A DNA stretch of 63,999 nt, the filler included, from Albugo candida (Eukaryota): NCBI GenBank assembly GCA_040437565.1. It is 37 parts of 37 records of this genome, joined end to end, with 100 filler letters (N's around TTAATTAATTAA, not from the genome) between each part and the next. Parts side by side here need not be neighbours in the genome. Positions count along the whole stretch, not along the records: positions 14,279 to 15,952 come from JBDOQK010000443.1; 36 more parts are not named here. One strand, 5' to 3'. The position numbers and the translations under genes were made by a program. Of the stretch, positions 4,040 to 60,810 are shown piece after piece. The notes below the pieces were generated by a model, which was not told the origin of the DNA, searched no databases, and saw only the letters and a list, made by a program, of their open reading frames with translations. How positions within the stretch are numbered: position 1 is the stretch's first letter; each line of letters begins with the position of its first letter.

Positions 4040-5240
4040 AATGAAACAGAACGTATCAATCATTCGTTTTAGTATCGGAAGTTAACTACGTTTCGTCAAC
4101 CAATTCAAACAATCTCATTGCTCCGTGTCGATCAATCCTTCAGAACATCGCCAATCATTCTTTTCAATAGCAGAAGTTAACTACGTTTCTGTATCGATCC
4201 AAATAAACAGTTCTGCCCCGCAGACCAATCCAATCAAAAAGAACTTCATAAATATTCTATCATCAACTGTAAAGTCGAGAACCGACCCTACTATCAAATC
4301 TAGACAATCATTCCGTTCCACGTATCGATTTCTAGTACTTCGCCAACTATTCGAATTAACAACAGGAATGAAAATCAATTATACCATCTATCCAACCAGT
4401 TCGTTCCGTCCTACAATCAATCGATCAACAGTACGTCGCTAATCACTCTACTTAATAACAGAATTAGTTCACTTACTCTACTACCAATCTAAACAATCAG
4501 TTATTCCCTACTAACTATTCAATCAAACTGCACTCACTATTCGTTCGATAGTAACCCAACAAGCCAACTCTACCATCAACCAAAAGACCAGTAAATTCCA
4601 TTATATTATCATTAATCGAAGTCACCCTACTATCCGTCTCAATAATACAGCTAACAAACCCACCCTACATCAAAGCAAACAATTAGTTGGTCCCACAAAC
4701 GAATCAATAATATCTCCCAAACGCTATTTTCAATACTAGAATCAGCAAGCTAACTCCAATACTAATCCAAACAGTCTGTTCGACATCACCAACGAATTCA
4801 TAGAACTTCCCCAATCATTCTTTTCAATAGTAGAATCAATAAGTTAACTCCACTATCAATCCAAATAATAAGTTGAGTATCAATCAACAATCAATAGAAC
4901 AGTCCCAATCATTCTTATGAATAGCAAAATCAGCAAGCCAACTTAACTACCAATCCAAACAATAAGATTCGTATTGATAAACAATCAATAGAACGTCCCC
5001 AACCATTCTTTTCAATAGTAAAGGCTGTTTACCAACCCTATATCAAGCCAAATAATTCGTTCAGTACTATAAATCAATCGATAGAACTTCCCCAACCGAT
5101 CGTTTCAATAGTAAAGTCAATAATCAACTCCACTATCAATCCAAACTGTCAGTTCAATACTTTCGTCGATATTCTTTCCGTTCGTCTGTGGCGATTATAG
5201 AATTAGCAAGCCAACTTCACTATCAAGCCACACTACTAGG
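4040..5240. repeat. Highly diverged tandem array, about 13 units of ~94 bp
   Basis: Anchor CTAYCAATCCAAA-like motifs near 4097, 4191, 4291, 4385, 4481, 4574, 4666, 4759, 4853, 4947, 5040, 5133, 5220; TAGAAC..CCC at 4801, 4895, 4989, 5082. Confidence 0.8.
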
Positions 5241-7165: not shown

Positions 7166-8847
7166 CAAACCTTAGCTAGAGAACCTAAATTTCTCAACTC
7201 ATCCAAAGGTTGTGTTATTCTCGAATACAGAGGAATAACTGTACGTAAATAACCAGAAAACCCCAACAAACGTTGTACCGCTTTACCTGTTGTGGGTATA
7301 GGCCATTCATGAACGTTCGAAACCTTTTTCTTATCCAAGCTTAAGCCGTCTACATTAATGGTAAATCCCAACGCATTTACTTGTGTTTGCGCGTAGTGTG
7401 CTTTATCATTATTCAATATTAATCCAACCTTATTCAATCTAGATATAACTTCCCTTAGACAATCGGTGTGGTATTGCATATCATCATGCGTAGCAATTTG
7501 CAGATCGTCAATATAAACCTGTGCATAAGGTAAATCAGCAATTAATCTACTTATGGCACGCTGAACAATTGCACCAACAGATGAAATACCAAAAGGAGCG
7601 CGAACAAATTTATACTGTTTTCCCTCATGATAGAACACAACATACTTTTGCGAATCGGGATGCATAGGAAAACGATGGTAGCATTGTGTAAGATCCAATA
7701 CACTGAACAGTTGCTTCCCAGACATACGTTGGTGTAAATCAGATATCAATGGAAGTTGAAACTTACAGATCGTAGAAGGGATGAGTACCTCATTTATGGA
7801 TCGAATATCTAAAACGACTCTAACCTTCTTTCCGTACTCTCCATTTAGATCCTTCTTTCTGACAGCAAGAAGAGGGCTTTGGTAGCACTTCGCATCTTCA
7901 TCGTTTGCTTCAGCTATTACACCATCATTCAACCAAGTTTGAACCTGATTATGGACAGCCTCTTGATGCGCGTAAGGGATAGGATATTGACGACGAAATT
8001 GATATTATGACTCGTCAATATGAAGTTCCACTTCAGCACCAGGTAAAGTACAACAAGAATTAATGGGAATTCTTGAATTTTCATCTAACAACGGTTGTAT
8101 ATCCGACATGAATTGATTTCGTTCTTCTTTAGTACCAAAATCAAAATTACTATTTTCCTCACTATCATTAGCGGTTGCATCAATTGGATCCTCTATAGCT
8201 GGTTCGTATGAATCCCAAGAAGTAGCCAATCCGGAGAAACAAATATTCAACAAAGGCATTAAATCTGAACCAATACATACCACAGCATCTGATTTAAATT
8301 TAAAAATTTCAAAATCGTATGTTAAGGGAATTCCATTATAAAGTACATCAACATCCTTAACTTGACCAATACGATCAACATCATCAACATCATCATGAGC
8401 TAAACTTACAGAATCAATATTATTTTTAACAACTTTACTTTTATTTAAAAATTTAATAAATCGAGGATGAATAGCAGAAAAATTACTACCATTATCCAAG
8501 TAAGCAAAAACTTTAAAACCATCGATTGTTATCGGAACAAAGGTAGAAGTTTCACTATTCTGTAGAGGTAAGTTAGATTCCAATAACAAATTATCAATTT
8601 TATTATGTAACTTACGATTTCTTCTATCAACAGTCATAGATCGAAAAGTCAAATTACCCTCGGCTTTCTTATCCTTACAGACATGACCCGGACCATAACG
8701 TTGCTCACAACGAAAGCAAAGACCTTTCCTCTTAAGTTCAAAACGGTTGACCTTTCTTGAATTACCTTGGGAAGAGGACCCAGAACCAGAACCATTTCTA
8801 CCATTCGATCTATAGGAAGAAGAAGAAGATTCACCACCACGATTTGA
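7166..8847 (-). mobile_element. Ty3/gypsy-like gag end, protease and reverse transcriptase in one frame, with one in-frame TAA at 8005-8007
   Basis: Knuckle CFRCEQRYGPGHVC, protease AYLDNGSNFS, RRQYPIP, RVVLDIRSIN, FSVLDL, RAPFG, YIDD, LLGFSGY. Confidence 0.93.
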
Positions 8848-12502: not shown

Positions 12503-14178
12503 AAAAGCGTATTTGCCCAATTTGGTGGTACCAGATTCTGCGGATTCTGAACAACAAAAATTTCTTACTAAACAAGCACACAATTATACATTACTAAACA
12601 ATACTTTGTATCGTTGTAACTTTGACTCATATCAACACCGCCAAGTACTAAACAAATCTGAAGCCATAGAAGCTCTCTACAATGCACATCAACATCCTCT
12701 CGGAGGTCATCTAGCTTTCAACAATACATTGAACAAAGTAGCATCAAGGTATTACTGGCCACACATGGCGAAAGACGTTACTAAATACGTAAAAGAATGC
12801 CCCCGCTGTCAAAAACAAGGTAAAGCTTCTCTCACCGAACGTTTACATCCAGTTGCTATTCTCCACCTGCCTTTTGAACAAATTGGGATAGATGTGAAAC
12901 ACGTGTCTACCAGTAGAAGTGGATATAGATATATTGTCGCAGCTATTTGTTACTTGACTAAATATGTAGAAGCACGAGCATTAAGATTTCAGACTGCGTC
13001 GGAGATTACATTGTTTTTATATGAAGAAATTATTACAAGATATGGGACTCCTAGGATTTGCATTACTGATAATGGTCGAAACTTCGTTAGTACCTTGGTA
13101 GAACAAGTCTGTTTCAACTTCTCTATACGTCATCATTATATAACTCCATATCATTCCCAGTCAAACGGATTAATCGAGCGTTTCAACAGAACGATAGATC
13201 AAATACTGAAAAGAAGAACTGTTGCGGAGAAGGAAGATTGGAACACGTACCTTCCAAGCATATTGTTTGCATACAGGAGCATGAAACAAGCTACCACCAA
13301 GCAAACACCTTTCTATTTACTGTATGGTTATAACCCAAGGACCCCTTTTGAAGCTACTAAGGCTATGGAACCAACATCGTTAGCATTCGAAGCCAAACTC
13401 AGACAAAGGACTGTGAATCAAATTACAACTTTAAATATGGTGCGACAAAATGCAATCAAAAAAATTGAAAGTTCTCAAAAAGCTCAAAAATTAGCTATAG
13501 ACAAGAAACTGTTGGAAACAAAAAAATCGCTGAAACCAGGTTTTGAAGTTGGTGATATTGTAGAAAAATACAAGGATTTTAAATCTGGTGGATGGAGTGG
13601 TAAGATTAGTGACCGGTGGGAAGGATTTTATACGGTGATTGAATGTCTCAAAAAAGGAAGTTACATAATCCAAGGTGAGACTCTAGATGGTAAAATACAA
13701 ACAAAAGTCGTACATGGAAACAGTTTAAGAATATACAATGTCCCTAACGTCGGCTGGAAATTAAACGAAAACTATAAAAGAACCGTGATTGACGACACCC
13801 CAAAATCTACTCAATCAAACAACCCAAAAAAAGTTTATTTAATGCAAAACCCAAATTCTTCTTCTTCGTCTGAATCTTCCAATGGATTGGTAATTCGTGG
13901 TCGTGCTGGTGGTCGTGACATAAATGAAAGACTAGGACCGGTATCGGGTAGCGATGATAGTGATGTAACTCAAGGTGAGGAATCTGAAGCTCTAATGGAC
14001 GACGAAGAATTCTTAAGTCTTTTGGATATGTGCCCTCCAGTTGTAGCACCTAATGAAGTGACTAATGACAGTCCCGAAGATGCCACTATCTCTGAAGGCG
14101 AAGCTCAAGACGAATTGTTAACACCCATGGGAAGAGGAGACTGGTCTGATCCTGTGAAGCTACAAGAAATGCTATTCT
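12503..14178 (+). mobile_element. Ty3/gypsy integrase with long C-terminal extension (partial pol)
   Basis: HHCC zinc finger (HQHPLGGH..CPRC), D,D35E core (IGIDVK, ITDNGRNF, SNGLIERFN), GPY/F-like WEGFYTV. Confidence 0.95.
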
Positions 14179-14278: not shown

Positions 14279-14448
14279 ATTATCTAATTATTACCACCGT
14301 CTCACTTATGCAACCTGATATCCATGGGTCAAGTATATTTTATATATATACTTAGACATAATATTCATTTTAATAAAGATCCATACTTTTTCACGACCGA
14401 TTGAATTTTCCGTTTATTTTACTTTTATTTATATTACTGAATTTAACA
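14279..14448 (+). repeat. 3' part of a 5' LTR (TATA, AATAAA, ends in CA)
   Basis: TATATATA near 14341, AATAAA at 14372-14377, ends TTAACA at 14448, followed by T7 and then gag. Confidence 0.65.
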
Positions 14449-14547
14449 TTTTTTTCAATCAGGTTTCAAAACCCTTGAATTACATATCTTTATTATTTTG
14501 AAAATTTTTTTTACACACACACTTTACTTGATTATTACTCACCTGCA

Positions 14548-15952
14548 ATGGCTCCAAGAAAACCTACTACTCGGCAAAGACGTTCGTCTATTACGACCCG
14601 AAATTCTAATTCTACGGTGAACAATAATCCTACTATTTCTTTTGGTGAAGTTATTGTACCATTGGCTCCTATTTCTGAACCACCTGTTGTACCATTGACT
14701 CACGTTTCTGAACCACCTGCTGTACCAAACAATAATGGTGTAAATTTGACTGATAATGAATCTACTCATGATGATGGTACTGATACTGTCAACAGCCATG
14801 AGGATGAGGGGCTTAATGATGACATTGACATGAGTAACGTTGGTGAAAACGATACCGATGAATCATCTTTAAGTAGTGAAGAACAAATTGATAGCATGGA
14901 AGAGGTGGAATCTTCCAACACTAATGGGTCATCATCTTCTATTGGGCATGACAATCATCAAAATAATCATGTTAGGACACTTTATCGTTACAACAATGAC
15001 TCCTTTAAGGCGTTAGGTAACACAATTGCTGGATACACTAGTCGAGTTGCTGAACTTATGGTTAATCTTACCACTCTCAACGCTGCTAATCCAAATAGTA
15101 ATGAGGCTAATACACTCCGTAGTCAATTTAACCAAGAATCTAAGGATCTACAAAATATGGTTGATACTCTGACTAGTATGAAGAGTGCTAAGGACATATG
15201 GGTAGGTGCAAGAGACAAGGTTCCCAAGGACTTGCCTAAATTGCAATGGATAGGATCCGTTTTCGACAAACAAAGTGTGGTATTTAACGATGCTAACGAC
15301 GCTTTGAGAAAATACAGAGATATCATTATTATGAGTGATTTGGATCCGGATGCTCACTGGCGTAGACTCTTACCTGCGGTACTTAGCCAAGAATTAAGTG
15401 ATAGGTTGGAAGACATTCCGGACAATATTAGGACTTGGAAAGAATTTCATGTTTACTTCTTGAACACCGTTGGTGTAGATAATGACGAGGAGAAACAACA
15501 AGCATATTCTGAATTGTTGGAAATTAAAATGGGCCGATACGAAAGTTTGCAAAAGTATCTGGATAGATTTTTTTCGTTGAAAAAACGTTCAAACACCAAG
15601 GATGGATTAATCATCACTGACAGATTTGTAAAAGGACTGGAACCCAGACTTCGTTCGAAAGTAAGCCCAGTAATTGATGGTTGGTCAAAGAAAAAACGGT
15701 CTTCATTTAGAGTGGTGATGTCTTATATTAAGAAAACAAGCTCCAAAATGCACAAAGATGGACAAGAATCAGAGGACACCAACAATCGTGGTGTGAAGGC
15801 TTGGAAACAATTTAGTAAGAACCAAGACAATAAGGATGATAACAATAAGCGAAGAGAAAGATTACAAATGTTGAAACGAAAAGGTCTTTGCTTTACTTGC
15901 GAAAAGGATTTCATCCCTGGGAAACATGTTTGTGATAAGAAGGATAATAAAG
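14548..15952 (+). mobile_element. Gag of an LTR retrotransposon (partial)
   Basis: VPKDLPKLQW, TWKEF, ESLQKYLDRF, FVKGL, knuckle CFTCEKDFIPGKHVC. Confidence 0.88.
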
Positions 15953-16052
15953 NNNNNNNNNNNNNNNNNNNNNNNNNNNNNNNNNNNNNNNNNNNNTTAA
16001 TTAATTAANNNNNNNNNNNNNNNNNNNNNNNNNNNNNNNNNNNNNNNNNNNN

Positions 16053-17489
16053 ACCAGAAACACGCATCATCCCAAAACGACCATTAAAGCGGCGACTTTC
16101 TTCAGCAGCAGCAAGAGCGGCAGGATCACAAACATGGCGAGAGTTAAATCCCGGAGCACCACACTTAAAACAATGCCCTTTAGGATACCAAGGACGTTTT
16201 CCAGCAGCACGATCTTGACTACCACCACCAACAGAAGAAGAAGCACCATCAGCCACAGGAGAAGAAGCAGTCACAGAAGCATTCAACAAAGCGGCATTCC
16301 CACGAGACAAAACTTGACAATCTTCAGTGTTGTGCTTGTCACGCCCATGTACTTCACAAAAAGCACCAACCATACCATGAGCACGAGATTTCCCCTTCTT
16401 GTTACGACTACCAGTAGATGACACAGCAGAAGGAACAGCATGAGCATACCTCGACTTGTTCGTAGAATGATGAAGATCATTATGAGAACTACTACGAGAA
16501 GAAGAAGCAACCCCAGAAGACGAAGAAGAAGAAGAACCCATAGGTAGAGAAGAGGCAGGCACAGACCCAGGAACAGAAGACATACCACCATCATACAAAT
16601 CATCGTACAACTTCTTGGCCAAGTTAGTGACCGCATCGACATTCAACTTGTCAACAGTAGCCATGTTAGCTTTAGACACAACCACCTTTTCACGAAGAGC
16701 ACGAGGAAGAGCACGCAAAAACTTGTCAATCAGAACAGAAGAAGGCGACACCTGGTCGACAGCACGACGACGAAGATCATTAAAACGATCAATGAAATTG
16801 ACCAAAGATTCACCGTTATTCATAACAATGTTCACCAATTCCACAGCACAAGCAGCACGATCTTCATCCACTGTACGACCATAACGACTCGTAATAGCAG
16901 TCTTGAAATCAGCCCACGTAGGAGGAGCTACCTTGACATCGTACTGAACAACGAATTGTTCATACCAAGTACGTTGAGAGTCAGAAAGTAACTGGGGCAC
17001 CAAACGCAAAAAATCAGCATCCAAATCCAAACCATGTGCCAACAACACATCTTCAAACTTGCGCAAACAAGCAGAGACATCAACACAAACAGAAGCAGAG
17101 TGATCAAAAATTGCATTTTCCCACTGAAAGAGAGGCAAATTACGGGGACAAACATTTGACTGTTGCTTGACAACAGGAGCAGCAACCGGGGCAACAACAG
17201 GAACAACAGGATTAGTAGCAGAAACAACCCTTTGAAGACGAAGCACCGAGACAGACAACCTTTCTGTACTTGTTTCCAGTTCGACATACCTTTCACTAAG
17301 TTCAATACGGGCCTCAGGAGTCAACGAAGCATCATCTAACTTGACAGCAATAGACGAAGTTTCACCAGAGTTACGTTCGATCAAAGCCAACAACTCAGCA
17401 ATAGATTCAGCAAGAGACTTAGGAACAGAATCAACTTCCATGGCATTAGAAGAAGAACCAGAGTTAGAGTTACCAGAAGGAGTAGACAT
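16053..17489 (-). mobile_element. Gag of an LTR retrotransposon related to 14548 (partial)
   Basis: CPRNLPLFQW, TWADFK, ESLVNFIDRF, FLRALP, CEVHGRDKHNTEDC and CFKCGAPGFNSRHVC. Confidence 0.9.
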
Positions 17490-17557
17490 TTTAAGGTAAG
17501 TAAAAAAAATAGAGTAGATAGAATAAAAGTAAATAAGCTTGGCTTGATTAAAAAAAG

Positions 17558-17725
17558 TGTTGTATATTTTAAATAAAAATACACAATAAAAAAATTAATA
17601 AAAAAACACAAGTAGAAAAGTAAATCAAAATAAGTAATCAGCTATGCTGGTAGGAAATAAAGATATATTCAGAATGAATTAACCCTTTTACTTTTATTCA
17701 AATAAGACACATATATATAGTAGTT
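17558..17725 (-). repeat. 3' part of a 5' LTR
   Basis: Minus strand: TATATATA near 17715, AATAAA at 17693-17698, AATATA at 17664-17669, ends CAACA at 17558, then C-T7. Confidence 0.65.
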
Positions 17726-19593: not shown

Positions 19594-19722
19594 AAGACCT
19601 ATAAATCAATCACTTTCGAATCCTCCCTCAAGTGAGCAAGTGTTCTCTGCTTCGTTCTCTCCGGTCTCTCCGCTTCGTTTTCTCTTCGCCTCGCGCTCAA
19701 GTTACAACAGGTTATGAGCCCA
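19594..19722 (+). promoter_or_regulatory. Copia 5' LTR end (to 19709) and primer-binding site
   Basis: LTR ends ACAACA at 19709, immediately followed by GGTTATGAGCCCA, matching the copia-type GGTTATGGGCCCA site for internal tRNA-iMet priming. Confidence 0.85.
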
Positions 19723-21257
19723 AGCGCCATGTCCTCCAGCAACACCTCGGCCAGTGTCTCCATCGATAAGTTCGATGGGGACAACTACTCAACCTGGTGT
19801 CGCTACATGCGCGGCGTGTTTCTGACGAAGTCAGTCTGGCACGTCGTGAACCGCGAAACGTCTCCAACCTTCACCGACCCGCGAGCTTCCGACGAGTACG
19901 TCAAGGCGAGCAACATCGCGTTCGGGTTGATGTTGCTCCACATGGACGCCGACTACCACCATGTGGTCGACAACTGTGAAGAAGCATGGACAGCGCGGTC
20001 GCGGTTGAAGATGCTCTATGGTGGGTCGCAGAAGGCGGGACGCATCTACCTCAAGCGCCAGCTGTTCAGCATCAAGATGGCGGAAGGTGCCAACGTCTTG
20101 CACCATTGCAACGAAGTCTTGAACATCGGCGCCAAGCTCAGCAGCATCGGTGCCAAGATGGAAGACGAAGACATTGCGATCTGCTTGCTGCTCAGTCTCC
20201 CGAAGAGTTTCGAGAACGTGGTTCTGAACTTGGAGATGAGCAATGCAGAGCTGCGCACGCAAGATGTGGTCAAGGTGCTGACTAACGAGCACATCAAGCG
20301 ACAAGGCGAGAAGATGACGACGGCAACGACAACGGTGAAGACTGAAGATGCGACAAAGGCATTCAGTACCGAGCGCAAGCCCTACCAATGCACATACTGC
20401 GGCAAGGTGGGGCACACGGCAGAGCGTTGCTGGACGAAGCAAAAGGATGAAAGTCGAGGAGCCCAACGCGGCGGCAATGGTCGTGGACGCGGGGCAAACA
20501 ATGTCCAGTGGCGACATTATGATCAAGGCAACAGCTACGATCGAGTGGCGTTTGCAGTTTCGTTCGAATGCGGAGTTTCGACGAACAAGAATGGATCAGG
20601 AATGTGGGCCGTTGACAGCGGGGCAACACATCACATCTGCCACGACAAGTTCAAGTTTGCAAGCTTGGTCGAAGGCAATGATGGCGAGATCCTAGTGGCT
20701 GATGGCAACAAGGCATCAATCAAAGGTGTGGGGACCATCGTGGAAAAGGTGATTCTGCCAAACGGGGAAGAGCGCGAGATCGAGATCAAGAACGCGCTCT
20801 ATGTGCCCAGCATGAGCAAAAATCTGCTCTCGGTGCCGCAGATTAACAAGCACGGCAACTTCCAAGTGGTGTTTGACGGGGATACGATGTACGTCGCTCG
20901 CAAGGATTCCAATCAAGTGGTGGCAGCTGCGGATCTTGTAGACGGACTCTACTGGCTTCGCACGACGCAGCGATCGGCCAATGCGACATCACGCAGCAAC
21001 GCTGTTGATCTACATGCGCGAATGGGCCATGCTCCGGTCGACGTACTTCGCAGGATGGTGACAAGCAACATGATCAAGGACGCTCACATCCCTTCCAAGC
21101 CGAGTGGATCAAGTGTGTGTCGAGGATGTCAAGAAGGGAAGATGGTCCAAAAACCATTCCCGAGCAACCGTGACAAGCGCACCTACAACACCTTCGAGAT
21201 GATCCACTTCGACATCTGCGGACCCATGGAAGAAAAATCTCTGGGTGGCAGCAAGTA
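19714..21257 (+). mobile_element. Ty1/copia gag-protease-integrase start, oomycete-type
   Basis: [65 protein letters not shown]-rich codon use. Confidence 0.96.
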
Positions 21258-23116: not shown

Positions 23117-24517
23117 TCTTTCAGCACTTTTCAAATAATTTAATCGGCATTGCTCTACTTTTGCATACATATCAACCAAAAACTGCTGGAAAAGGTTACC
23201 AAATAGGTGAAGGCAATTGTTGTCATCTCGAATCATAAAACGATATGAATAATATCTCATAGTACTAACTTTTTTTTCTCCTACTGTAGACATGGTAGAA
23301 ATACACCATCCTGGTTGACCTGTAGGGAAGAGAAGTACGTAATTCATTGGATCGTAATTTTGATTTAGTTCTCCTATTCTTTTGAATCCACCAATAGTTG
23401 GTTTAACGATGATATCTCTACTTGATCCTTCGGCAGAAGCTCCGTCATTTTGATTTGAATCAACAATTAAAATACCAATCTCAGTGGATGAAGACGTAAC
23501 AGTATTATAACGTCTTTGATCAGGAGATCCTTCAGCTTGAAATACTAATGATACATCAGCAATATTATTACTATCACTTGATTGAAGGTAATCATTGAAA
23601 ACTTTAAAATCATGAACGTATGGGTTTATGTTATGCATCATAGTTTGTAACTCTCTTAAAGTATCAATATTTAAAAAGTTATTATGAGAATGTCTATTTC
23701 TAAGTTCATTACTGGAATCATGAATATAAATTTGGGCAAACTTCGGGGTTTCCCCTTCTGATGGATTCAGGCTGCCGATACGATGATAAATGCTGCCATG
23801 AATTCTAAAACAATAAGCTCCTCCACGTAAATTAGCAACTGATTGATCAAGGTTACATCCAAGCGATGTAAAACCCAAAGCACTGTTATAAGCTCTAATA
23901 TTTGTTTTGAACTCAATGCTTTTTTCATCTGAACCTTTCAAAAGTGTCGAAATTAAACTTGGTGAATCTCGTAAATTTTCAGGTACGTATTTTCCTTTAC
24001 CACAGCATATAGAAAACAAAGGCTCACTATTAGTTCCTCCTGTTCTCTCTGTTGCCCACATTTTTGCTCCACAAACGCTACATTGCTGATCCATCCGTCC
24101 AAGATCATGACGTTCTCTAAATGATGGTGTTCCTCTTCTTGCCATATTATGAGTGCTGTTGTTGGGACAGTTAGGGCTGTTTGAACGATGACCCTCATTT
24201 CCACAATTAGTACATACGATAGATCTTATTTCAAAATTAGGACAACTATTACTATCAGCACGGTGACCCTCATTTCCACAACTTCTACATGTAATAGTTC
24301 GTGGTTCAAAATTAGGACACGTACGACTATTAGCACGATGGCCGACATTTCCGCAGCTGGTACATGATCTCTCTACGTAATTAGCACAAACTCTACTATT
24401 TGCACGATGTCCTTCAATTCCACAACTTCTGCAAGTGATTGTTTGTTGACGATAATATGGACAATGTCTACTTGAGCTGCGGCGGTGTGTTGTACCAAGA
24501 CAACTTGAACAACGCAT
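23117..24517 (-). mobile_element. Helitron RepHel N-terminal region with five zinc knuckles
   Basis: LGRMDQQCSVCGAKMWATE, CCGKGK, NIRAYNSALGFTSLG, FRIHGSIYHRIGSL, PKFAQIYIHD, YDPMNYVLLFPTG, LFQQFLVDMYAKVE. Confidence 0.95.
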
Positions 24518-26629
24518 TTCAGCTTAAAAAAAGGAATGAGTTAGCATTTATAAAGAGATGGTAAAATGTGAGTCGCATATAGTTACAGTTTGAAGCTAAA
24601 GGTTGTTCTCTGTCTGTTGGTCTTTCAGGGGGCATTTATAATATAAAAACTTAATTAAAAAAAAGGTAAAAAGGTCGAAAAAATAAAGGTTTTCGTTGCT
24701 CTATCACACCAGCTTATTTTTTTATTTTTTGTGACTGTTTTTTAGAAAATTAGCAAGTTACTCTCTGTTTTTANNNNNNNNNNNNNNNNNNNNNNNNNNN
24801 NNNNNNNNNNNNNNNNNTTAATTAATTAANNNNNNNNNNNNNNNNNNNNNNNNNNNNNNNNNNNNNNNNNNNNCGTCATCATATAATTTTTTTATTTTTA
24901 TTTTGATTTTTATTTTTATTTTTATTTTTATTTCTATACTTTATAACATGGCAACAATCTGACCGTTGTATAGTCACTACTATCCACTTGCATTATCAAT
25001 CTTTATCAATGACCTTTAACGGCCTGTGGTTCTGAAGACTGGAATGGCTTTTTTTTTGCTGTCGGTGATTAATCAAGTTCGTCTTTTGCATTTCAAGTTT
25101 GCACCAATTTCTTTTACAGGTAGCTGTTAATTAAATCAGCCTCTATAGTCGCGTGCTATATGAACCTTGCCAAATAATATAGTGTTCTTTGTTATCCGCT
25201 TCAAATCTTGGCCCTCTTTATCATGAGCTCTATACTGAAGACTTAGGGTAGGGGTCGCTATTATCAATTCATTATTTTACGCACTACGCCTTCAATTTTG
25301 ACCATTGTTTTAGCGGTATTATGCTCCTATCTGTCAAATGTACTGTTTGCTTCTGTAAAGAGTTCTTCCTTGATAGTGTTGTCCTCGTCTTTAAAAAGAA
25401 GGGTATGATTTTATTTAAGGAATCGTCTTAAATATTGTTATCCTCGTCTTTGAGAAGAATGGTGTGATCTTGTCTTGGAAGTTGCCTCGATTTTTTTTTT
25501 TGGCTTTTTATTGAACACTACATTGCAGCTTCTACTCGTTTTCTTATCGTGTGTTTAAAAATTTATAACTTGTACTGGTTCCTAGCTGTAATTTTATGTT
25601 GTAAGTTAATCAAAGATGTAATAGTGCACCAAAGGGATCATTCTTAATAACAAAAAAAAACATTATCGATATTAGGGATATAACTCTATTGACTGTATAA
25701 AAGACCTTTCTGAAGATCAGCTTTCTTTGCTCCTGACGCCACTTTTTTAACATTCATGAAATCAAGTAAAACTAGTGATACAAGAACAAGGGTAACAACT
25801 ATAGTTTTAGAATAGGTTATAAATCAAAAACTAACTTTAACTTGATATAGAACAAACTTCAAAATGGTTGGCAAATCGAGTAGTCTAAGAGCCGACTCAG
25901 GATATCCCAGTTTTAATCATTAAGTATGAATCGGCTATAGTTAAACGCAGCAAACTCAACGATGATTTAAAAAAGCTCTCTATTTCCTGTAAAAATGCAT
26001 TTTATGATGTCGTAAACAAAACCAAAAAGGTACCAATAGTTGGTATTTAAGCAACAGGTATGATTAATAGATTTAAAATGAAATCAAATCGCTTTGCTAA
26101 TTGTCGTACTGCTATTAGGAACAACTATTTCCATTTATTTGTTTGACGCTATTTTGGGAAAAGTTACAAGTGTTGCACCCACAAAGTTCAAGATGGTCCA
26201 ATTTGATCGATGTGAGCTCCCAGAGCACAAAGATAATTTTTTTGCCTCCAAAATGCATATCGTTGCTTTAAGAACGCGTCAGTAAGTAATGCTATTTTTT
26301 GTTTTTGTGTGAAGGAAAAAATCTAAAGTTTTATTGTATATAGAAAATCATCAATGTTGTGTTGGACAGACTTTGTGAACGTGTGGGCCATCTTGCCGTT
26401 TAAATCTTTAGAACAATATTTTATAATAAAATTCTTCCCAAACCCAAAAATCAAAAGTAGCTGTTTGCTAGATTGAAGCTGAGGATTAAAGTAAGTAGAA
26501 CAACATAAAGCTCAAATATAATACTTAGTNNNNNNNNNNNNNNNNNNNNNNNNNNNNNNNNNNNNNNNNNNNNTTAATTAATTAANNNNNNNNNNNNNNN
26601 NNNNNNNNNNNNNNNNNNNNNNNNNNNNN

Positions 26630-28282
26630 AACATGTTTACCGCATCGAAAATAGAGCAAGCAAAATCGCAGTTTTGCGTACGACACTTTGCTGGACAAGT
26701 TATCTACACAATCGATCATTTTGTGGAAAAGAATGTCGATGCACTTCCGGCAAAAATCTCAGATATTCTTTTTCCCTCGTCGAATGAAATCATTGCTGCG
26801 ATCGGATTGGAATGTCGAAGAGAGAAAGTCTTTTGGACCGAGAAAAAGGAACATGTCCAGCAACCGGAAGATTCAGACGAAATGGACAATCTGACCAAAT
26901 CAAAACCTGCATCGAATCGTAAGGCCTCTACACACCGATGTCCCAGTGTTTCATCCCAATTTCGCTCGCAACTCGATCTGTTGATTGACGAAATAGGAGA
27001 AACTCAATCTCACTATATCCGTTGTCTGAAAGCGAATGAAGACAAAGAGCCAAATGCATTCAATCGTATCCGCATGGTCGAGCAATTACGTTCTGTTGGA
27101 ATCGTTGAAGCAGCCAAAATCGCTCGATGTGGATATACTGTTCGACTGTTGCATGCAAAGTTTCTCGATTTATTTGAATGCACATTCCAAGCTGTAGCAA
27201 GTACAATTACAAAGGATTCAGCGCGGCTTCAAACAGCAGAAAAGGATCTCAAGATCGGTCTGAATATATGTCGTGCACTCCGTCAGCAAGCAAAGTGTTC
27301 TCTTCCAGCATCCTCAAGCACGAGCACGAAGAATCCTCCAAAACACCCCGATATACAAATTGGAAAGACGCTTGTATTTTGTAAACGTGACACTTATCAT
27401 CGACTCTATGCGTTGCGGATCAGATGTCAATATCTCGCAGCGGCAAAGATACAAAGCACATTCAAAGCGTATCGCGGTCGGCACTGGTATAAGCAAACCA
27501 CGCAGGCACTTTGTCGATTTCAAAGTCACGTCAGACCGTATTTACGTGACCGAATTTGGAGACTTAAACGCGAGCAGTCTGCAATAAAGCTACAACGGTG
27601 CTGGAGAGGCTATGCTGATCGTGCGGATGTCGCCAGGATGCATCAAGCAGCTACTTTGATCCAAGCAACGGCACGAGGGTACCATGTGCGTCACACTCAC
27701 CAACCACTGCAGAAACTTCGACAGCATTACGCAGCAATTCGTATTCAGGAGAACTACAGATTGCATCGATTCCGTCGAGCATTTGCATCGGCAATTGAAG
27801 ATGAGCAACGGCAAAATTATGCTCTTGCCGCTGCATCCGTTCAGAGATGGTGGAGGCTGGCTCTATGTCACAAATTGGCTCTTGTGGACACGGAAACTCT
27901 GGATTGGATACCCGAGCAGAAATCTCGACCAGTTGATCAGTACAGCATCAAGAGAATGGACTGGAAGCGCAAAGGAACTCGCTGTACCAAAATCGATGAA
28001 AATCAAGAATTCAGAAAAGAATTTACACCAACTAAAGCTGAAAAAGAGGACCCGATGACGCCAAAACGACGCAGCACATCTCAATTCGGAAAAAATGGAT
28101 TGCATCGATACTCTCCAACAAGCAGTGATACACTCTCCTTCGAATCAACTGAGACGGAGAAGAAAAACCGACTGAATGGTTCACCGTTTGCAAGAGTCGA
28201 TTCAGGCACTCGCAGCTCCATAGGATATCGTATCTCGAATCCCGACGAAATGATTTGCCGGCGCTCCACTTTCAAAAATAAA
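26630..28282 (+). CDS. Myosin heavy chain fragment: motor C-terminus, about six IQ motifs, start of tail (oomycete-type)
   Basis: FCVRHFAGQVIY, SVSSQFRSQL, HYIRCLK, QLRSVGIVEA, QIGKTLVF, repeated IQxxxRGxxxR. Confidence 0.93.
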
Positions 28283-40380: not shown

Positions 40381-40589
40381 ACTAATAAAANNNNNNNNNN
40401 NNNNNNNNNNNNNNNNNNNNNNNNNNNNNNNNNNTTAATTAATTAANNNNNNNNNNNNNNNNNNNNNNNNNNNNNNNNNNNNNNNNNNNNACCGTAAATT
40501 TAAGGTTTTTACTGCTTAAAATCTAGGCTCGCGGCCTTTTTTTGAGCTCGTTAACCGCAAATCAAAGCTCGCGAGCACCCCTACCTATA

Positions 40590-40845
40590 TATAGTAAACA
40601 AATAGAAGCAAGTTTATAAGAATAGTAAGGTTTTAATAAGATTTTTATAGACAAAATTGAATGAATCTTTATTGTAAGCAAATTAATTGTGAGTATTTAT
40701 ATATTTTTATATTTATAACAAAAAGAAGATTTTCAAAAAAAAAGAATAGTAAAAGAAAAAGAATGCTTTCAAAAAATGATAGCATTCAAAAAATGAATAG
40801 CTTGAAATAATTAGAATACGAATTGTGCGTGTAACATGTCCCCCC
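40590..40845 (-). repeat. Polypurine tract and 3' LTR of a gypsy element
   Basis: Stop TAG at 40850-40848, GGGGGGACA at 40845-40837, TGTTAC from 40836, internal TATAAATA and AATAAA; distal end not identified. Confidence 0.75.
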
Positions 40846-40847
40846 GA

Positions 40848-42103
40848 CTAGTTATGTTTAGCCCCTAAACCACTAGTTTCCTTTTGCATAGCAATAACCT
40901 CCCATCTCTCATAGGGATCAATAGTCTTGATGAATGCCTTGATTGCCTTAGTTCTTCCACGATACCTGTTGGTGGCAAGGTTGGAAATGTAGAGACCCCT
41001 CATGTTTACATATTTTCTGAATTCAACAATGGTAGTAGGCATCTTCACCTGGATGTTGCATAATAGAGCAATAGAGACAGCTGCTCGAGTTACTATCTCG
41101 TGTTCACGGCGTTGTTCGGCTCGTCTTCTTATCATTACCTCCTCCCATTCTTCAAAGTCGGATTCAATTTGGGTACGCAAACCAGCTTGAGTGGCTTCAG
41201 GGATTAAAGAAGGCGGGTCTTCTGGTTGAAAAGTAGCAGCATCAAAATCCAGTACAGATAGGAGATCTTCACCTAAGAATTCGTCCATATCATCGAATGA
41301 CAATACCGATTCTTTGTCTTGTTGATCTTCGCTTGTCGAAGAACCAGCAGCAGGACCCAAACGATCGTTGATTGACTTACGGTTAGCCAACCCTTGGATT
41401 TGCAATCCAGTAGTAGTAGAATTGTGTTGGTTATTCATTACAGTATTATTTGATGAGTAATTTTGTGAGTTGGAAAAACCTTCATTTAACCAGGTCCTTT
41501 TATAGTTTTCTTGCAATTTCCATCCAACATCAGGTACCTTGTAAATTCTTAATCGGTTTCCGTGGATCACTCTTTTCACTTCCTTTCCTGATTCAGTTTC
41601 ACCAGTAATAACATAATTTCCCTTTTTTAAAGATTCTGTGACAGTGTAACATCCCACCCATCTATCTGTTAATTTTCCAGACCAAGTCATTCCTGTATAA
41701 TCACGGTAACGTTCCACCACATCTCCTACTTCAAAAGCTGGCTTCAGTTGTTTCTTTGCTTCTAATAATCTCTTGTCAATAGCCTTTTTTTGAGCCTTTT
41801 GAGATGCTTCAATTTTTTTGATACAGTTTTTCCTTATTAAGTTTAGCGTCACTATTTGATGTGCAGTTCTTTGCTTTAAATTGTATTCAAACTTTGTAGA
41901 AGTGGGATCCATTGCCTTTGTAGCTTCAAACGGAGTTCTAGGATTGTAACCATATAACAAGTAAAACGGAGTTTCTTTCGTAGTTGCTTGCTTCATGCTT
42001 CTGTATGAAAACAAGGCAGCTCCAACGTAGGTGTGCCAATCTAACTTATCTTCTGCTGAACGTCTTTGTAATATTTGATCAAGTGTTCGATTGAATCTCT
42101 CAA
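40848..42103 (-). mobile_element. Ty3/gypsy integrase C-terminus plus extension, related to 12503
   Basis: IERFNRTLDQIL, YRSMKQATTKETPFYLLYGYNPRTPFEATKAM nearly identical to the 12503 ORF. Confidence 0.95.
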
Positions 42104-42203: not shown

Positions 42204-42360
42204 GAGATCACCCGAGTGGATACTCCAAAAAAAAAAAAAAAAAAAAAAAAGATCGGATTAAGATCTTTGTTTGATCCCAGCATGCATATGCTTCCTGTCA
42301 AAGCCACACGTTCACTAATAAAATGTTGTGAGTTTCTGATTTATCTGCTGTTTACCATTG
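42204..42360 (+). repeat. Duplicate of 60548-60710 (contig-end overlap)
   Basis: Identical sequence except for an A24 versus A30 run. Confidence 0.95.
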
Positions 42361-43810: not shown

Positions 43811-44013
43811 NNNNNNNNNNNNNNNNNNNNNNNNNNNNNNNNNNNNNNNNNNNNTTAATTAATTAANNNNNNNNNNNNNNNNNNNNNNNNNNNNNNNNNN
43901 NNNNNNNNNNTATCATTGCCATCCACTCACTCGTCAGCATCAACATGCTACAATGTCGATGTCTGCGCAATGGAGAAGGACGACAGGAGAAAGCCTTCGA
44001 CGCCGAGGAAAGG

Positions 44014-44034
44014 TGCCGCGACCCGGGATCGAAA

Positions 44035-44079
<45 letters not shown>

Positions 44080-44086
44080 CCGAGGC
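44014..44086 (-). tRNA. tRNA-Phe(GAA), possibly defective
   Basis: GCCTCGGTAGCTCAGTTGGGAGAGCG-TCAGA CT GAA GA TCTGA; one acceptor-stem mismatch and G53->T in the T-stem. Confidence 0.85.
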
Positions 44087-44405
44087 CACACACTGCACAA
44101 TCAACACACACCATACAACATATGCATTACCAACGCACATCACGAGTCACGCACGTATTCACGTACGGCTCACTCCATCCTGCCTGCAATCGTAGGTCAA
44201 TGGCACGCACCTGCTCGATTTGCGAAAATACAGAATCCGACAATGAAGGAGACAGACCGAGCGGCGACACGACTTATGGCACGGATACAGCGATGAGAAG
44301 GTTGAAACCGATGCGAAGTGCTTTGACGGACACGAAGATAAGCGACTGTCGTCACCGCTAAGGCGGTGTCGATGCGACCAGATTCGAATTTGTGTGTGTC
44401 AACAT

Positions 44406-44477
44406 TGCCCCCAGGCAGGATTGAACTACCGACCTTACGCCAACTAAGCGGGTGCTCTATTACGGAGCTATATGAGC
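44406..44477 (-). pseudogene. tRNA-Thr(AGT) pseudogene
   Basis: TAGCTC..TAGAGCA, loop TTAGT, GTTCAATCC; several stem mismatches. Confidence 0.65.
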
Positions 44478-44663
44478 TCCTCTCAACAACAACAACCAAC
44501 CATTTCTCACGCCCTGATTACACACGCTATTCACTCTCGCATCAATCACGCGCCACAAACAGATCCATCGGTCAATGGACCAAGCGATCGACTTAGTCTG
44601 CCACTTCGGGTATGTGAAAAAGAAACGGCGATGGTAGCAGAGGACTGAGGTGAAATGGAATAG

Positions 44664-44735
44664 TGCGCCGTCGGGAAATCGAGCCGCGACCTCATCCTGG
44701 AAAGGATTAAACCCTAATCTTGAAACCAAGGGTGT
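44664..44735 (-). pseudogene. Relic of tRNA-Gly(TCC)
   Basis: ATCCT-TTCC-AGGAT hairpin and 3' end TCGATTTCCCGACGGCGCA; heavily decayed. Confidence 0.4.
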
Positions 44736-45126
44736 TCCTCACGTTAGTCAGATGCCGACTCTTCTCACACTACCAAGTACATACACATCCATTGCGACCT
44801 TCTTCGCATTATGGAGCGCGTCGACGATAGCCACGAGCGACATCCCTCGCACCTTGCCGCGATAATCACGGCTGCCAAATGCACTCGTCCACCACTTCTT
44901 GTCCGCCTCCAGGCCATGCTTTTGGTGGCTGCTTCATACCAACTCCTGACAGTCTTGTAAACTTTACTGATGTTCGGTCGGCAAACGGGATGATTCGCCT
45001 TCATTTAGCATAGTGACAGAGCTTTGAAGCTGTTAGCGGTGGTCAACGTCAGCGAAGCGGCCGTACACCGGTGCGGTGCATTCCATCAACAGCAAGCAGG
45101 AGAAAGGGCGATCGTGCAGCCAAAGA

Positions 45127-45199
45127 TATCGGAGGAGGGGATCGAACCCTCGATCTTGAGCGTGTTAAGCTCACGTCCTAACCACTAGACGACACCGAC
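45127..45199 (-). tRNA. tRNA-Val(AAC)
   Basis: GTCGGTGTCGTCTAGTGGTTAGGACG-TGAGC TT AAC AC GCTCA..GAGGG TTCGATC CCCTC. Confidence 0.9.
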
Positions 45200-45235
45200 T
45201 CGTCAGCGCGCACACAACCGTGTCACAACTACCAC

Positions 45236-45400
45236 CATCTTTCTATCACGGTACTTGCTCGCTATCGATCTCGCACCAATACTTGGCTTTTGATGAAATT
45301 CCACCTACTTCGCGCTGCATTCTCAAACAGCGCGACTCTAACAAACGTATCGTACGCGCAAGCCACTTCAGTACAAACGGTAGTTTCACCCTCCATGCTG
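45236..45400 (-). pseudogene. Diverged 28S (LSU) rRNA D1-region fragment, oomycete-like
   Basis: Minus strand GAGTCGCGCTGTTTGAGAATGCAGCGCGAAG..GAGATCGATAGCGAGCAAGTACCGTGATAGAAAGATG resembles the conserved LSU segment GAGACCGATAGCGAACAAGTACCGTGAGGGAAAGATG. Confidence 0.85.
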
Positions 45401-45615
45401 TCGCGGTACGCGGTTGCTGGAGGCATACACGACATCATTGCCATCCACTCACTCGTCAGTATCAACATGCTACAATGTCGATGTCTGCGCAATGGAGACG
45501 GACGACAGGAGAAAGNNNNNNNNNNNNNNNNNNNNNNNNNNNNNNNNNNNNNNNNNNNNTTAATTAATTAANNNNNNNNNNNNNNNNNNNNNNNNNNNNN
45601 NNNNNNNNNNNNNNN

Positions 45616-55690: not shown

Positions 55691-55989
55691 NNNNNNNNNN
55701 NNNNNNNNNNNNNNNNNNNNNNNNNNNNNNNNNNTTAATTAATTAANNNNNNNNNNNNNNNNNNNNNNNNNNNNNNNNNNNNNNNNNNNNATTTTGTTTT
55801 TAAAGACAATTAATTAGTTAGATGTGTAACTCTGAAAGACAAATGGGTCACAAGTGGTGGTAACAAAGCATAAAGTATTGGTGATACCTAATAATGGACC
55901 AAAGAAAAAAATAGATATAAAAAGAGCAAACTAATTCACACTTTTCTTATTATAATTATCAACAGTTCTATTCTTTTTAATATTACACT

Positions 55990-56700
55990 ATGCAATTGAT
56001 TCAACTTGCCATTCTTTCTCTTTTCGGTTTAGCTGCCGCCGCTCCTTCCTCCGTTGAAAAGCGTGGTGTAAACACTTCTGTCAAGATTTTCAATAATTGT
56101 CAATTCACTATTAAACTTGGTCAATTATCTAGCAATCAACCGCCTGTCCCCACTGTTACCCTTGCTGCTGGTGGTAGCAAATCTTACCAGTACACAGGTA
56201 CTTGGTCAGGTAGATTCTGGGCTAGAAAAAATTGTGATGGCGTTGATTGTCCACTTGCCGGTGCTGCTTCTCCTGCTTCATTAGCTGAATTTACCTTTAA
56301 TGGTGATGCTGGAAAAGATTTTTATGATCTTTCTTTTGTAGATGGTTATAATTTGCCTGTTTCTATTACTCCTGTAAACCCTAACAATGTTGGTTCTGGA
56401 GACAAGTATTGGTGTGGTACACCTACTTGTTCTACTACGCCTGTCTGTCCTCCAGAGTTACAAATCCAGGTCAATGGTGGAGATGATGCTTGTTTATCTG
56501 CTTGCTCTAAATTCGGAAACCCTGAATATTGTTGTTCCGGTGCTTTCAATACTCCTGATAAATGTCCCATCAACAAGTATGCTGCAGTTGTTAAGAAAGC
56601 TTGCCCTGATGCCTATAGTTATGCTTATGACGATAGATCTAGTACTTTTACATGCATTGCTCCTGCTTATACCATTACCTGGTGTCCTAACAAGAATTAA
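55990..56700 (+). CDS. Secreted thaumatin-like protein (PR-5 family)
   Basis: Signal peptide, EKR processing site, WSGRFWAR, SLAEFTF, DFYDLSFVDGYNLP, ACPDAYSYAYDD, YTITWCP; TATAAAA about 70 nt upstream. Confidence 0.97.
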   Translation: MQLIQLAILSLFGLAAAAPSSVEKRGVNTSVKIFNNCQFTIKLGQLSSNQPPVPTVTLAAGGSKSYQYTGTWSGRFWARKNCDGVDCPLAGAASPASLAEFTFNGDAGKDFYDLSFVDGYNLPVSITPVNPNNVGSGDKYWCGTPTCSTTPVCPPELQIQVNGGDDACLSACSKFGNPEYCCSGAFNTPDKCPINKYAAVVKKACPDAYSYAYDDRSSTFTCIAPAYTITWCPNKN

Positions 56701-57471
56701 TTCTTTTCGTTTAGAAAAGATTCGTTATCAATCATTTTTGTAATAAAGCACAATTTGTATTACAAATAAAATACTGAAATAGTAACTCCACAAAAGAGAA
56801 ATCTGAAAACATTTCATATATTTGTTCTTTTCATTTCTTTTCCATGTAATTTCTGCTCCACCAAAAAGTAATCTAAGATCTTTATCATTTATATAAATAC
56901 CTGTTTCTTTCTCTTTCTTTTTTATAGAATCAAATAGACTCAAAAAATAATAAGATGAAGCTTATTTATACACCTGCTAGTCATGACACCTGTTAATATT
57001 CTTCTGTAGAGTGATATCATAGAATATAATATATTGGTGTGTTCTTTATCATACCAATTACACTTTGTATGACTTAATAAAACCATAAAGCTAAATTTCA
57101 AACCGTTAAATAAATGACAGTGAAAAGACTTTTTAAAAAGAACGGTGGACCTGGTAAATACAACATGTCGTTAGCAGCTATATAAGATGCAGTTGAACGG
57201 GCTATTTTATAAGATATAATCGACAGGGAAATGATTCGAATATGGAAAGGCGTACAACATACGATACATTAGAAAGAGGATTGCTAGCAATCTCCTTTAA
57301 ATTTTACCTACTCTTCTTAAGCATAAATTACACAAAAAAGTAAATTATCGTGGCATGTCCTTTTAATTCTTNNNNNNNNNNNNNNNNNNNNNNNNNNNNN
57401 NNNNNNNNNNNNNNNTTAATTAATTAANNNNNNNNNNNNNNNNNNNNNNNNNNNNNNNNNNNNNNNNNNNN

Positions 57472-60569: not shown

Positions 60570-60602
<33 letters not shown>

Positions 60603-60810
60603 TCGGATTAAGATCTTTGTTTGATCCCAGCATGCATATGCTTCCTGTCAAAGCCACACGTTCACTAATAAAATGTTGTGAGTTTCTGATTTATCTGCTG
60701 TTTACCATTGNNNNNNNNNNNNNNNNNNNNNNNNNNNNNNNNNNNNNNNNNNNNTTAATTAATTAANNNNNNNNNNNNNNNNNNNNNNNNNNNNNNNNNN
60801 NNNNNNNNNN

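Follow-up and report, generated by a model that had tools for sequence, protein, structure and literature searches.

An oligo(T) tract at the primer position of chromovirus-like retrotransposons in Albugo candida, and a tentative model of priming by polyadenylated RNA

The mode of priming of reverse transcription is a defining trait of a retroelement lineage. To our knowledge, only two modes are established for long terminal repeat (LTR) elements, priming by transfer RNA (tRNA), as whole or half molecules, and self-priming by the 5' end of the RNA, of which Tf1 is the type. In Tf1, the transcript pairs through its extreme 5' end with a site that abuts the LTR. Here we describe an element of Albugo candida, termed el1, which occupies the contig at positions 14279-15952 of a 63,999-nucleotide (nt) stretch of assembly GCA_040437565.1 (the window), and in which a run of seven T residues (T7) stands directly after the LTR in place of a tRNA-type site. 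An earlier note on this DNA had proposed that the polyadenylated 3' end of the element's own RNA anneals at this run and primes minus-strand synthesis. The observation behind this proposal was confirmed, and the interpretation is a coherent, testable hypothesis that is partly supported.

In most Skipper chromoviruses, which occur in dictyostelids and a Protostelium, a degenerate polypyrimidine tract replaces the TGG site (excerpts of Spaller et al. 2016, PMC5006619). According to the same excerpts, the priming mechanism of Skipper is unsolved, no complementary LTR segment was found, simple poly(A) priming was considered unlikely by the authors in view of a C at the LTR side, and the feature is stated as not found outside amoebozoans (PMC5006619). 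What the earlier note said of Skipper-like elements was right in this respect, as these excerpts describe a polypyrimidine tract at the primer site and an unsolved mechanism (PMC5006619). According to excerpts of a second paper, the chromoviruses Tf1/sushi and Tcn1, as well as TAR copia elements, are predicted to self-prime in the manner of Tf1 (PMC6317226). The excerpted parts of an oomycete retrotransposon survey make no mention of primer sites and list no Chronos or Archon elements in Albugo (PMC5348765). In the open-access literature, we found no paper in which an LTR element is proposed to be primed by a poly(A) tail.

The window (positions 1-63999) is composed of 37 contigs of 1532-1702 nt each, ordered from longest to shortest and separated by linkers of the form N44-TTAATTAATTAA-N44, and adjacency within it has no meaning. 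The contig of el1 starts inside the LTR and ends inside an open reading frame (ORF), and thus comprises a partial 5' LTR, the leader and the Gag ORF. Two other elements are referred to as el2 (contig 16053-17725, minus strand) and el3 (contig 40491-42103, minus strand). A sole public sequencing run, here called run X1, matches the window DNA, and no RNA run is listed among the matches; run X1 consists of DNA contigs and is probably the data set from which the window itself was derived. The features of the primer region and its surroundings are as follows.

14279-14448, plus strand: last 170 nt of the 5' LTR, with the end ..TTAACA, placed by a depth step and contig breaks in run X1.
14449-14455, plus strand: T7, the proposed binding site of an oligo(A) 3' end, adjoining the LTR and kept in el2 and in a relative like protein P0002.
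14456-14465, plus strand: CAATCAGGTT, which completes the primer site distally and supplies the 3' strand of the inner helix, with A14461 bulged.
14548-15952, plus strand: Gag ORF P0001 of 468 amino acids, open at the contig end, with a terminal C-x2-C...H-x-C motif.
17487-17725, minus strand: el2, a second family member, with an LTR end, C, T7, leader and Gag start (ATG 17489).

The word depth of run X1 was 71-105 over positions 14279-14446 and 10-17 thereafter, a drop of about 7-fold. A 357-nt contig of this run, with a depth of 49, stops exactly at 14448 and reaches 187 nt further upstream than 14279. Two further contigs of the run (records 5 and 6) open with 14419-14448 and then split, record 5 (2316 nt) proceeding into the interior of el1 and record 6 (390 nt) having no match to the window past 14448. 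Since the depth step and the contig breaks coincide there, the last base of the LTR is 14448, and the end at ..TTAACA that the earlier note had assumed is thereby borne out. The closest relative of the el1 Gag, and the sole close one in the database, is a partial Albugo candida protein, P0002, which is 53% identical to it; record 7 (1720 nt) opens with the corresponding 30 nt at the end of a related LTR and continues into a P0002-like element, the LTR of which ends ..TTTAACA, also at a contig break. The CA terminus is present at the LTR end of el1, the LTR start and flanks lying outside the contig. In the contig of el3, which is possibly related, the LTR start is TGTTAC, the inverse of ..TTAACA. 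Read on its minus strand, this contig covers a gypsy-type element at its 3' end, with the ORF stop, a G-rich polypurine tract GGGGGGACA and the LTR start TGTTACAC; its LTR contains CAATAAAGATTCATTC, which resembles AATAAAGATCC of el1, and G+C-rich sequence begins about 85 nt later.

All the letters on which the earlier note relied were found in place, namely AATAAA at 14372-14377, ACCGATTGAA at 14396-14405, TTAACA to 14448, and then TTTTTTT (14449-14455), CAATC (14456-14460), A (14461) and GGT (14462-14464). With the LTR end at 14448, no TGG occurs downstream before 14549, which falls within the start region of Gag, and the claim that a tRNA-type site is absent holds. Readings of the site as complementary to a tRNA anticodon arm or a half-tRNA were weighed by eye and dropped. 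A comparison by eye of the el1 site with the two tRNA genes of the window, of which only the tRNA-Phe sequence was read, gave no match. These two genes, tRNA-Phe(GAA) and tRNA-Val(AAC), lie in a contig of 52% G+C (43911-45515), whose terminal 82-nt stretches are 98% identical at a spacing of 1522, which marks the contig as either a tandem unit or a small circle. On the minus strand of another contig (47319-48920), which encodes a Ty3-capsid-type Gag, TTGGAGGTCTCGCCGAGAC follows ..TATCA, a possible LTR end. Read by eye, TTGGAGG.. begins one base past ..TATCA in a near-palindromic stretch, and may represent a conventional TGG primer site; the T7 site is thus probably not general among the elements of this genome.

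The junction of el1 might in principle be read in the opposite sense, the minus strand offering GATTGAAAAAAA followed by TGTTAAA.. as a polypurine tract and the start of a 3' LTR. The reverse complement is indeed purine-rich and then reads TGTTA, like the GGGGGGACA-TGTTACAC junction in contig 40491-42103. Against this, the Gag ORF lies on the plus strand 100 nt downstream, with an N-terminus, MAPRK, in common with proteins P0003 and P0004, el2 shows the same order of LTR end, T run, leader and Gag, and both the TATA-like run and AATAAA of the LTR read in the plus sense. We therefore rejected the minus-strand reading, which is contradicted by the ORF order and is extremely improbable.

The site is kept outside el1. 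In el2, the junction reads ..ATACAACA-C-TTTTTTT-AATCAAGCC, with the LTR end ..ACAACA to 17558, the C at 17557, T7 at 17556-17550 and AATCAAGCC at 17549-17541. The Gag of el2 is 31% identical to that of el1, and a MAFFT alignment of the two elements gave 125 identical positions out of 278 overall; the best 19-nt window was the junction block, with 16 of 19 identical, which reads AACA-T7-C-AATCAGG in el1 as compared with AACA-C-T7-AATCAAG in el2 and includes T7-CAATCAGG. The run X1 contig of the P0002-like relative matches 14432-14465 without gaps and with 2 mismatches and diverges beyond 14465, while another short piece of this relative shows 6 mismatches over 14385-14430; for these two pieces, the contig-depth data give mismatch counts, not letters. 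As judged from these comparisons, the consensus site after the terminal CA is 6-7 T with one flanking pyrimidine, AATCA, and R-G. The T run together with the next 8-10 nt thus behaves like a primer binding site, being 15-17 nt long, abutting the LTR and forming the best-conserved block around, and the oligo(T) site is kept in at least three diverged lineages of elements in an oomycete. A search for exact matches to the 23-nt junction pattern found none in either metagenome or viral contigs. Likewise, protein-guided scans of metagenome, prokaryote genome and viral contigs, for which a 4-sequence alignment was used as the 15-sequence version was too diverse, yielded no confirmed relative.

These features resemble those described in the Skipper excerpts in that the elements are of the chromovirus-type Ty3/gypsy group, lack a TGG after the left LTR and carry a pyrimidine run that adjoins the LTR. 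The run is T7C in el1 and CT7 in el2, and the C of el2 (17557) is on the LTR side, where a C is described for Skipper, whereas el1 has no LTR-side C; the Skipper tract was compared from its description in the text. The present elements also differ in their oomycete host, in having a defined T7 with a conserved AATCA instead of a degenerate tract, and, in the case of el1, in having a complementary LTR segment, none being reported for Skipper in the excerpts. The site is best filed as a Skipper-type non-tRNA primer site, now in a new eukaryotic supergroup. Relative to the Skipper work, what is new is a defined, conserved T7 plus AATCA site at the exact LTR edge, and LTR-leader complementarities that lead to a concrete, falsifiable model.

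The 3' edge of an LTR is set by the 3' end of the minus-strand primer, give or take the two bases trimmed by integrase. Since the repeat of el1 ends in CA and is followed by T7, a primer at this site must end in several A residues. The extra C of el2 sits within the two bases removed by integrase. We tentatively favor the view, which we hold with somewhat less than even confidence, that an A-tailed RNA primes, and that the foremost candidate is the RNA of the element itself, since genomic RNA is the RNA expected in the particle.

An alternative explanation is priming by a host RNA common to these families, or by any RNA with an A tail, with a 3' end approximately complementary to T6-7-(C)AATCA-R-G. 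This would fit the observation that, between families whose Gag proteins are 31% identical, the site exceeds all other non-coding blocks in conservation, as is the case for tRNA sites, and that the bulged A is conserved. In addition, the MAFFT alignment shows four differences between the sites of el1 and el2, all of them transitions, so that G:U pairs could let one primer serve both. On the other hand, no candidate RNA is known. A search of the 64-kb window allowing up to 3 mismatches gave 6 matches against 6.4 expected, which were the two primer sites themselves and 4 at the 3-mismatch limit, and Rfam gave no match at E ≤ 1 over 14279-17725. If a host RNA were the primer, it would be a chance event of about 0.6% that the LTR of el1 carries its near-match at the appropriate spacing from AATAAA, and for a generic A-tail primer, seven A:U pairs alone make a weak duplex. 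We consider this explanation rather improbable.

The reading in which the element's own RNA primes draws on a segment of the LTR. The features of the LTR that bear on it are as follows.

14342-14352, plus strand: TATA-like run TATATATATAC, letters read; possibly a U3 promoter element.
14364-14371, plus strand: TTCATTTT, letters read; a possible transcript start would be A14367.
14372-14377, plus strand: AATAAA, the presumed polyadenylation signal, letters read.
14396-14405, plus strand: ACCGATTGAA, which supplies the 5' strand of the inner helix and, in the model of the earlier note, the last RNA bases before the tail.
14406-14448, plus strand: T-rich stretch, which would be U5 if cleavage occurs near 14403-14405.

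AATAAA is present in all four of the related LTRs, namely those of el1, el2 (17698-17693) and el3 and an LTR variant in run X1, and in this variant TTCATTTC is kept directly before it (at a loose end before 14385). The motif TTCATTTT resembles what we take to be the oomycete initiator motif.

The earlier note had described a pairing of 10 base pairs (bp) between ACCGATTGAA and the primer site with one bulged A, which proved real when the letters were checked: ACC pairs with GGT (3 bp), GATTG with CAATC (5 bp) and AA with TT (2 bp), A14461 being bulged. To score such matches, we counted Watson-Crick complements that start beside the T run and extend over 8 bp or more, a single bulge being allowed. 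An equal complement anywhere in the 170-nt LTR part arose in 117 of 5000 dinucleotide shuffles (p of about 0.02), and one restricted to 10-35 nt after AATAAA in 116 of 20,000 random 12-mers.

The same complementarity could also serve a Tf1/sushi-type mechanism, in which transcription would start at about 14396 and the first 10 bases would fold onto 14454-14464, be cut and prime. The relatives of el1 are chromoviruses, a group with known Tf1-type priming (excerpts of PMC6317226), and the TATA-like run lies 44-54 nt upstream of 14396. Further points in common with Tf1/sushi, so far as the excerpts describe these elements, are the lack of a tRNA primer, an LTR segment complementary to sequence past the LTR, and a primer from the element's own RNA. 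Nevertheless, a primer with its 3' end at 14454 would put TTTTT (14449-14453) inside the LTR, although the repeat ends at 14448, and the conserved T run would be left without a role. An R region starting at 14396 would place AATAAA in U3, making the outer helix described below impossible at the 5' end, though possible with the 3' copy, and el2 has no matching segment at the equivalent place. The complement in el1 differs from that of Tf1 in that it starts 5-7 nt past the LTR end, with the T residues between lying outside the repeat; T7 would thus act as a spacer, and the proposed partner is the 3' end with its tail. Priming of the Tf1 type is accordingly very unlikely here. We return to the reading in which an A-tailed 3' end is the primer.

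A second complementarity, which was absent from the earlier note and is stronger than the inner one, encloses the primer site. Its parts in el1 are as follows.

14371-14380, plus strand: TAATAAAGAT, which pairs perfectly over 10 nt with 14486-14495 and is the 5' strand of the outer helix.
14465-14479, plus strand: hairpin TTCAA-AACCC-TTGAA between the helices, from the minimum-energy fold.
14486-14495, plus strand: ATCTTTATTA in the leader, 3' strand of the outer helix, from the complement and the minimum-energy fold.

A helix of equal length to the perfect 10-nt outer helix of el1 was found in 65 of 5000 shuffles. In el2, GAATAAAAGTAAA (17699-17687) pairs perfectly over 13 nt with 17533-17521, which was equaled in 2 of 5000 shuffles. 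AATAAA lies within the outer helix in both elements, and the six pairs of this hexamer are identical, while three flanking pairs are changed on both sides from el1 to el2 (U:A to G:C, G:C to A:U and A:U to G:C) and none is broken, showing that the outer helix covaries between them. The minimum-energy fold of el1 RNA 14367-14500 contained the outer helix, the inner helix and the hairpin at -16.2 kcal/mol (z = -3.1), and none of 200 shuffles folded as well; the corresponding region of el2 gave z = -4.4, again with 0 of 200 shuffles as good. When a 3' end bearing A7 was cofolded with the leader, both helices and a stack of A7 on U7 were obtained at -21.9 kcal/mol.

These data indicate that the LTR-leader structure is real. 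Since R is identical at both RNA ends, the sequence cannot separate pairing in cis at the 5' end from pairing of the 3' R and tail with the leader, and the two are indistinguishable by sequence. In the cis form, the 5' end would adopt a stem of the U5-leader type, in which the AAUAAA of that end would be buried; past the 3' LTR, the leader strand of the outer helix is absent. Under the explanation that a host RNA primes, the helices would be such a 5' structure, which presents the primer site and hides the 5' AAUAAA from the cleavage machinery, and the U5-leader stem of avian retroviruses is an analogue. The fold data given above are in keeping with it, as the minimum-energy fold of the 5' RNA of el1 has both helices and the el2 region also folds better than its shuffles, and the occurrence of the outer-helix leader strand only after the 5' LTR would suit a selective masking of the 5' AAUAAA. 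Pairings between R/U5 and the leader near the primer site are known from Ty1 (CYC5-CYC3), Ty3 (bipartite site), avian retroviruses (U5-leader stem) and HIV-1 (poly(A) hairpin). The HIV-1 poly(A) hairpin resembles the outer helix in that the pairing includes AAUAAA. Ty1, Ty3, avian retroviruses and HIV-1 are tRNA-primed, whereas the helices of el1 flank an oligo(T) site.

If the element's own RNA is the primer, the events may be envisaged as follows. In el1, the bases before the expected cleavage position (..ACCGAUUG/AA, 18-28 nt after AAUAAA) would pair just past the T run, and the AAUAAA region would pair with the leader 38-47 nt after the LTR. R and the tail would be clamped onto the leader by both pairings, with the A residues of the tail on the T run. 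The strong-stop DNA would then stay beside the 3' R, and the first strand transfer would amount to a fold-back onto the adjoining R, so that primer, template and acceptor of the first jump would be one molecule. The start of minus-strand DNA at the 3' end of the polyadenylated genomic RNA, with R and a few A residues of the tail on the oligo(T) site, is possible but on balance doubtful, and the exact model of the earlier note, including the pairing of the R end, is likewise a conjecture that we would not expect to hold. We infer the transcript start, the poly(A) site, the identity of the primer and all replication steps. The pairing of an RNA poly(A) tail with a run of T residues also occurs in the target-primed reverse transcription of long interspersed nuclear elements, where it starts DNA synthesis. 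The proposed mechanism shares with it this tail-to-T-run pairing and differs in that, in those elements, T-rich DNA primes on an RNA template, whereas here an RNA tail would prime on RNA, in an LTR element.

Several observations weigh against priming by the element's own 3' end. The covariation of the two inner segments that the earlier note had looked for among relatives was not borne out, el2, the one relative with a readable LTR, giving no independent support, since its best match was equaled in 1249 of 5000 shuffles. Within 10-35 nt after the AATAAA of el2, the strict score is only 3 bp, and GGGTTAATT (17685-17677) pairs at 7 of 9 positions and requires two mismatches. The LTR of el1 itself contains another complement, a perfect 8-mer, AACCTGAT (14312-14319, in U3 and upstream of the TATA-like run) with ATCAGGTT (14458-14465); because of this unrelated complement in the same AT-rich LTR, matches of the size of the inner helix can arise by chance. 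The bulged A is kept in el2, and most likely in the P0002-like relative too, given the gapless match, and the T run has 7 residues in both el1 and el2; a site copied from the primer should lose the bulge, and a T run copied from a tail should vary in length, so that both kinds of conservation are unfavorable. That the site is kept across families with otherwise different LTRs suggests a shared trans-acting primer, as for tRNA sites. A normal poly(A) tail is far longer than 7 A, and a loop-out or a short tail would be needed. The same helices form in cis, and therefore pairing alone is no proof of a 3'-end partner. Finally, the transcript start and poly(A) site of el1 are guesses, and the evidence base consists of two partial elements and the summary data of run X1.

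Two further observations concern the inner segment in relatives. The best bulge-tolerant complement in el2, GCTGATT (17642-17636), has the bulged A in the same place and would imply two compensatory changes among the outer three pairs; it lies 51-57 nt after AATAAA, and 22-28 nt after an AATATA, a candidate identified post hoc. The run X1 LTR variant reads ..ACCGATT-AAT.. where el1 has ..ACCGATTGAAT.., and is known from the LTR side alone.

It is also conceivable that the inner match is due to chance, and that the T-rich site works by a mechanism not imagined here, perhaps that of Skipper, or is a relic of an immobile family. The p value of only about 0.02 for the inner helix, the second, chance-level 8-mer match in the el1 LTR and the lack of support from el2 are in line with chance, as are the statements in the Skipper excerpts that no complementary LTR region was seen and that simple poly(A) priming was disfavored (PMC5006619). 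The inner match nevertheless lies at the right position relative to AATAAA. As for a relic, a related reverse transcriptase (RT) contig (7166-8847) has an in-frame stop at 8005-8007, whereas the conservation of the site in three lineages and the high LTR depth argue for a working site, and the Gag ORF of el1 is intact over 468 codons. We regard chance or a relic as unlikely but not negligible.

If priming by the element's own 3' end were true, it would constitute a third priming mode of LTR elements, and could also explain the polypyrimidine sites of Skipper. Tail priming would tie the replication of an LTR element to the polyadenylation state of its RNA, and annotation tools that require a tRNA-type site would be affected.

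With regard to the identity of the element, the claim of the earlier note that el1 is an LTR retrotransposon holds, on the basis of the 5' LTR-leader-Gag order, the relatives of the Gag and the depth step at the LTR end; the part seen is the junction of 5' LTR, leader and Gag, and the element is a chromovirus-like LTR retrotransposon of the Ty3/gypsy type from an Albugo-like oomycete. A full HMMER scan with P0001 yielded 118 relatives at E ≤ 0.001. A domain scan of 9 relatives showed Gag, RT, RNase H, integrase and chromodomain in P0019 and P0050, and Gag, RT and RNase H in P0060. P0002 proceeds from Gag through a protease-like region to the start of RT, and one related contig of run X1 encodes a peptide identical to part of it. 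The gene order Gag-protease-RT-RNase H-integrase was pieced together from separate molecules, namely P0001, P0002, contig 7166-8847 and P0019/P0050, of which the last two display it in full. A chromodomain was seen in P0019 and P0050, which are distant relatives, and none was found at E ≤ 1e-4 in the contig with a gypsy-type integrase (12503-14178). Since the N-terminus MAP(R/T)RK of P0001 is common to P0003 and P0004, the ATG at 14548 is the true Gag start, and a search for longer Gag homologues found none. Contig 7166-8847 encodes on its minus strand a Gag end, a protease and an RT (RVT_1) with 67% identity to P0002, and belongs to the same family as el1; the copy is defective, the stop mentioned above lying within the aligned region.

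Within the 64-kb window, we found no other copy of the el1 contig sequence and no second LTR, and no other copy of the region upstream in el2. In the Gag ORF of el1, 33 nt (14654-14686) are missing from the run X1 contig, at a site in the repeated EPPVVPL/EPPAVP part of Gag, and the two sequences thus differ as copies or alleles of a short tandem duplication.

The other contigs of the window are heterogeneous, their G+C content spanning 27%-54%, and another organism, e.g., the host plant, may contribute some of them. The domains recognized comprise a copia-type Gag (19594-21257, 54% G+C), zinc knuckles with a Helitron-like N-terminus (23117-24773), a non-LTR endonuclease (60811-62367), a myosin head fragment (26630-28282) and a thaumatin-family ORF (55791-57371). 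An exact 134-nt repeat is shared by 42227-42360 and 60577-60710, the start of one contig and the end of another, which are probably overlapping contigs left unmerged. At 4756-5123, a unit of about 94 nt is present four times in tandem, the copies being 67-71% alike.

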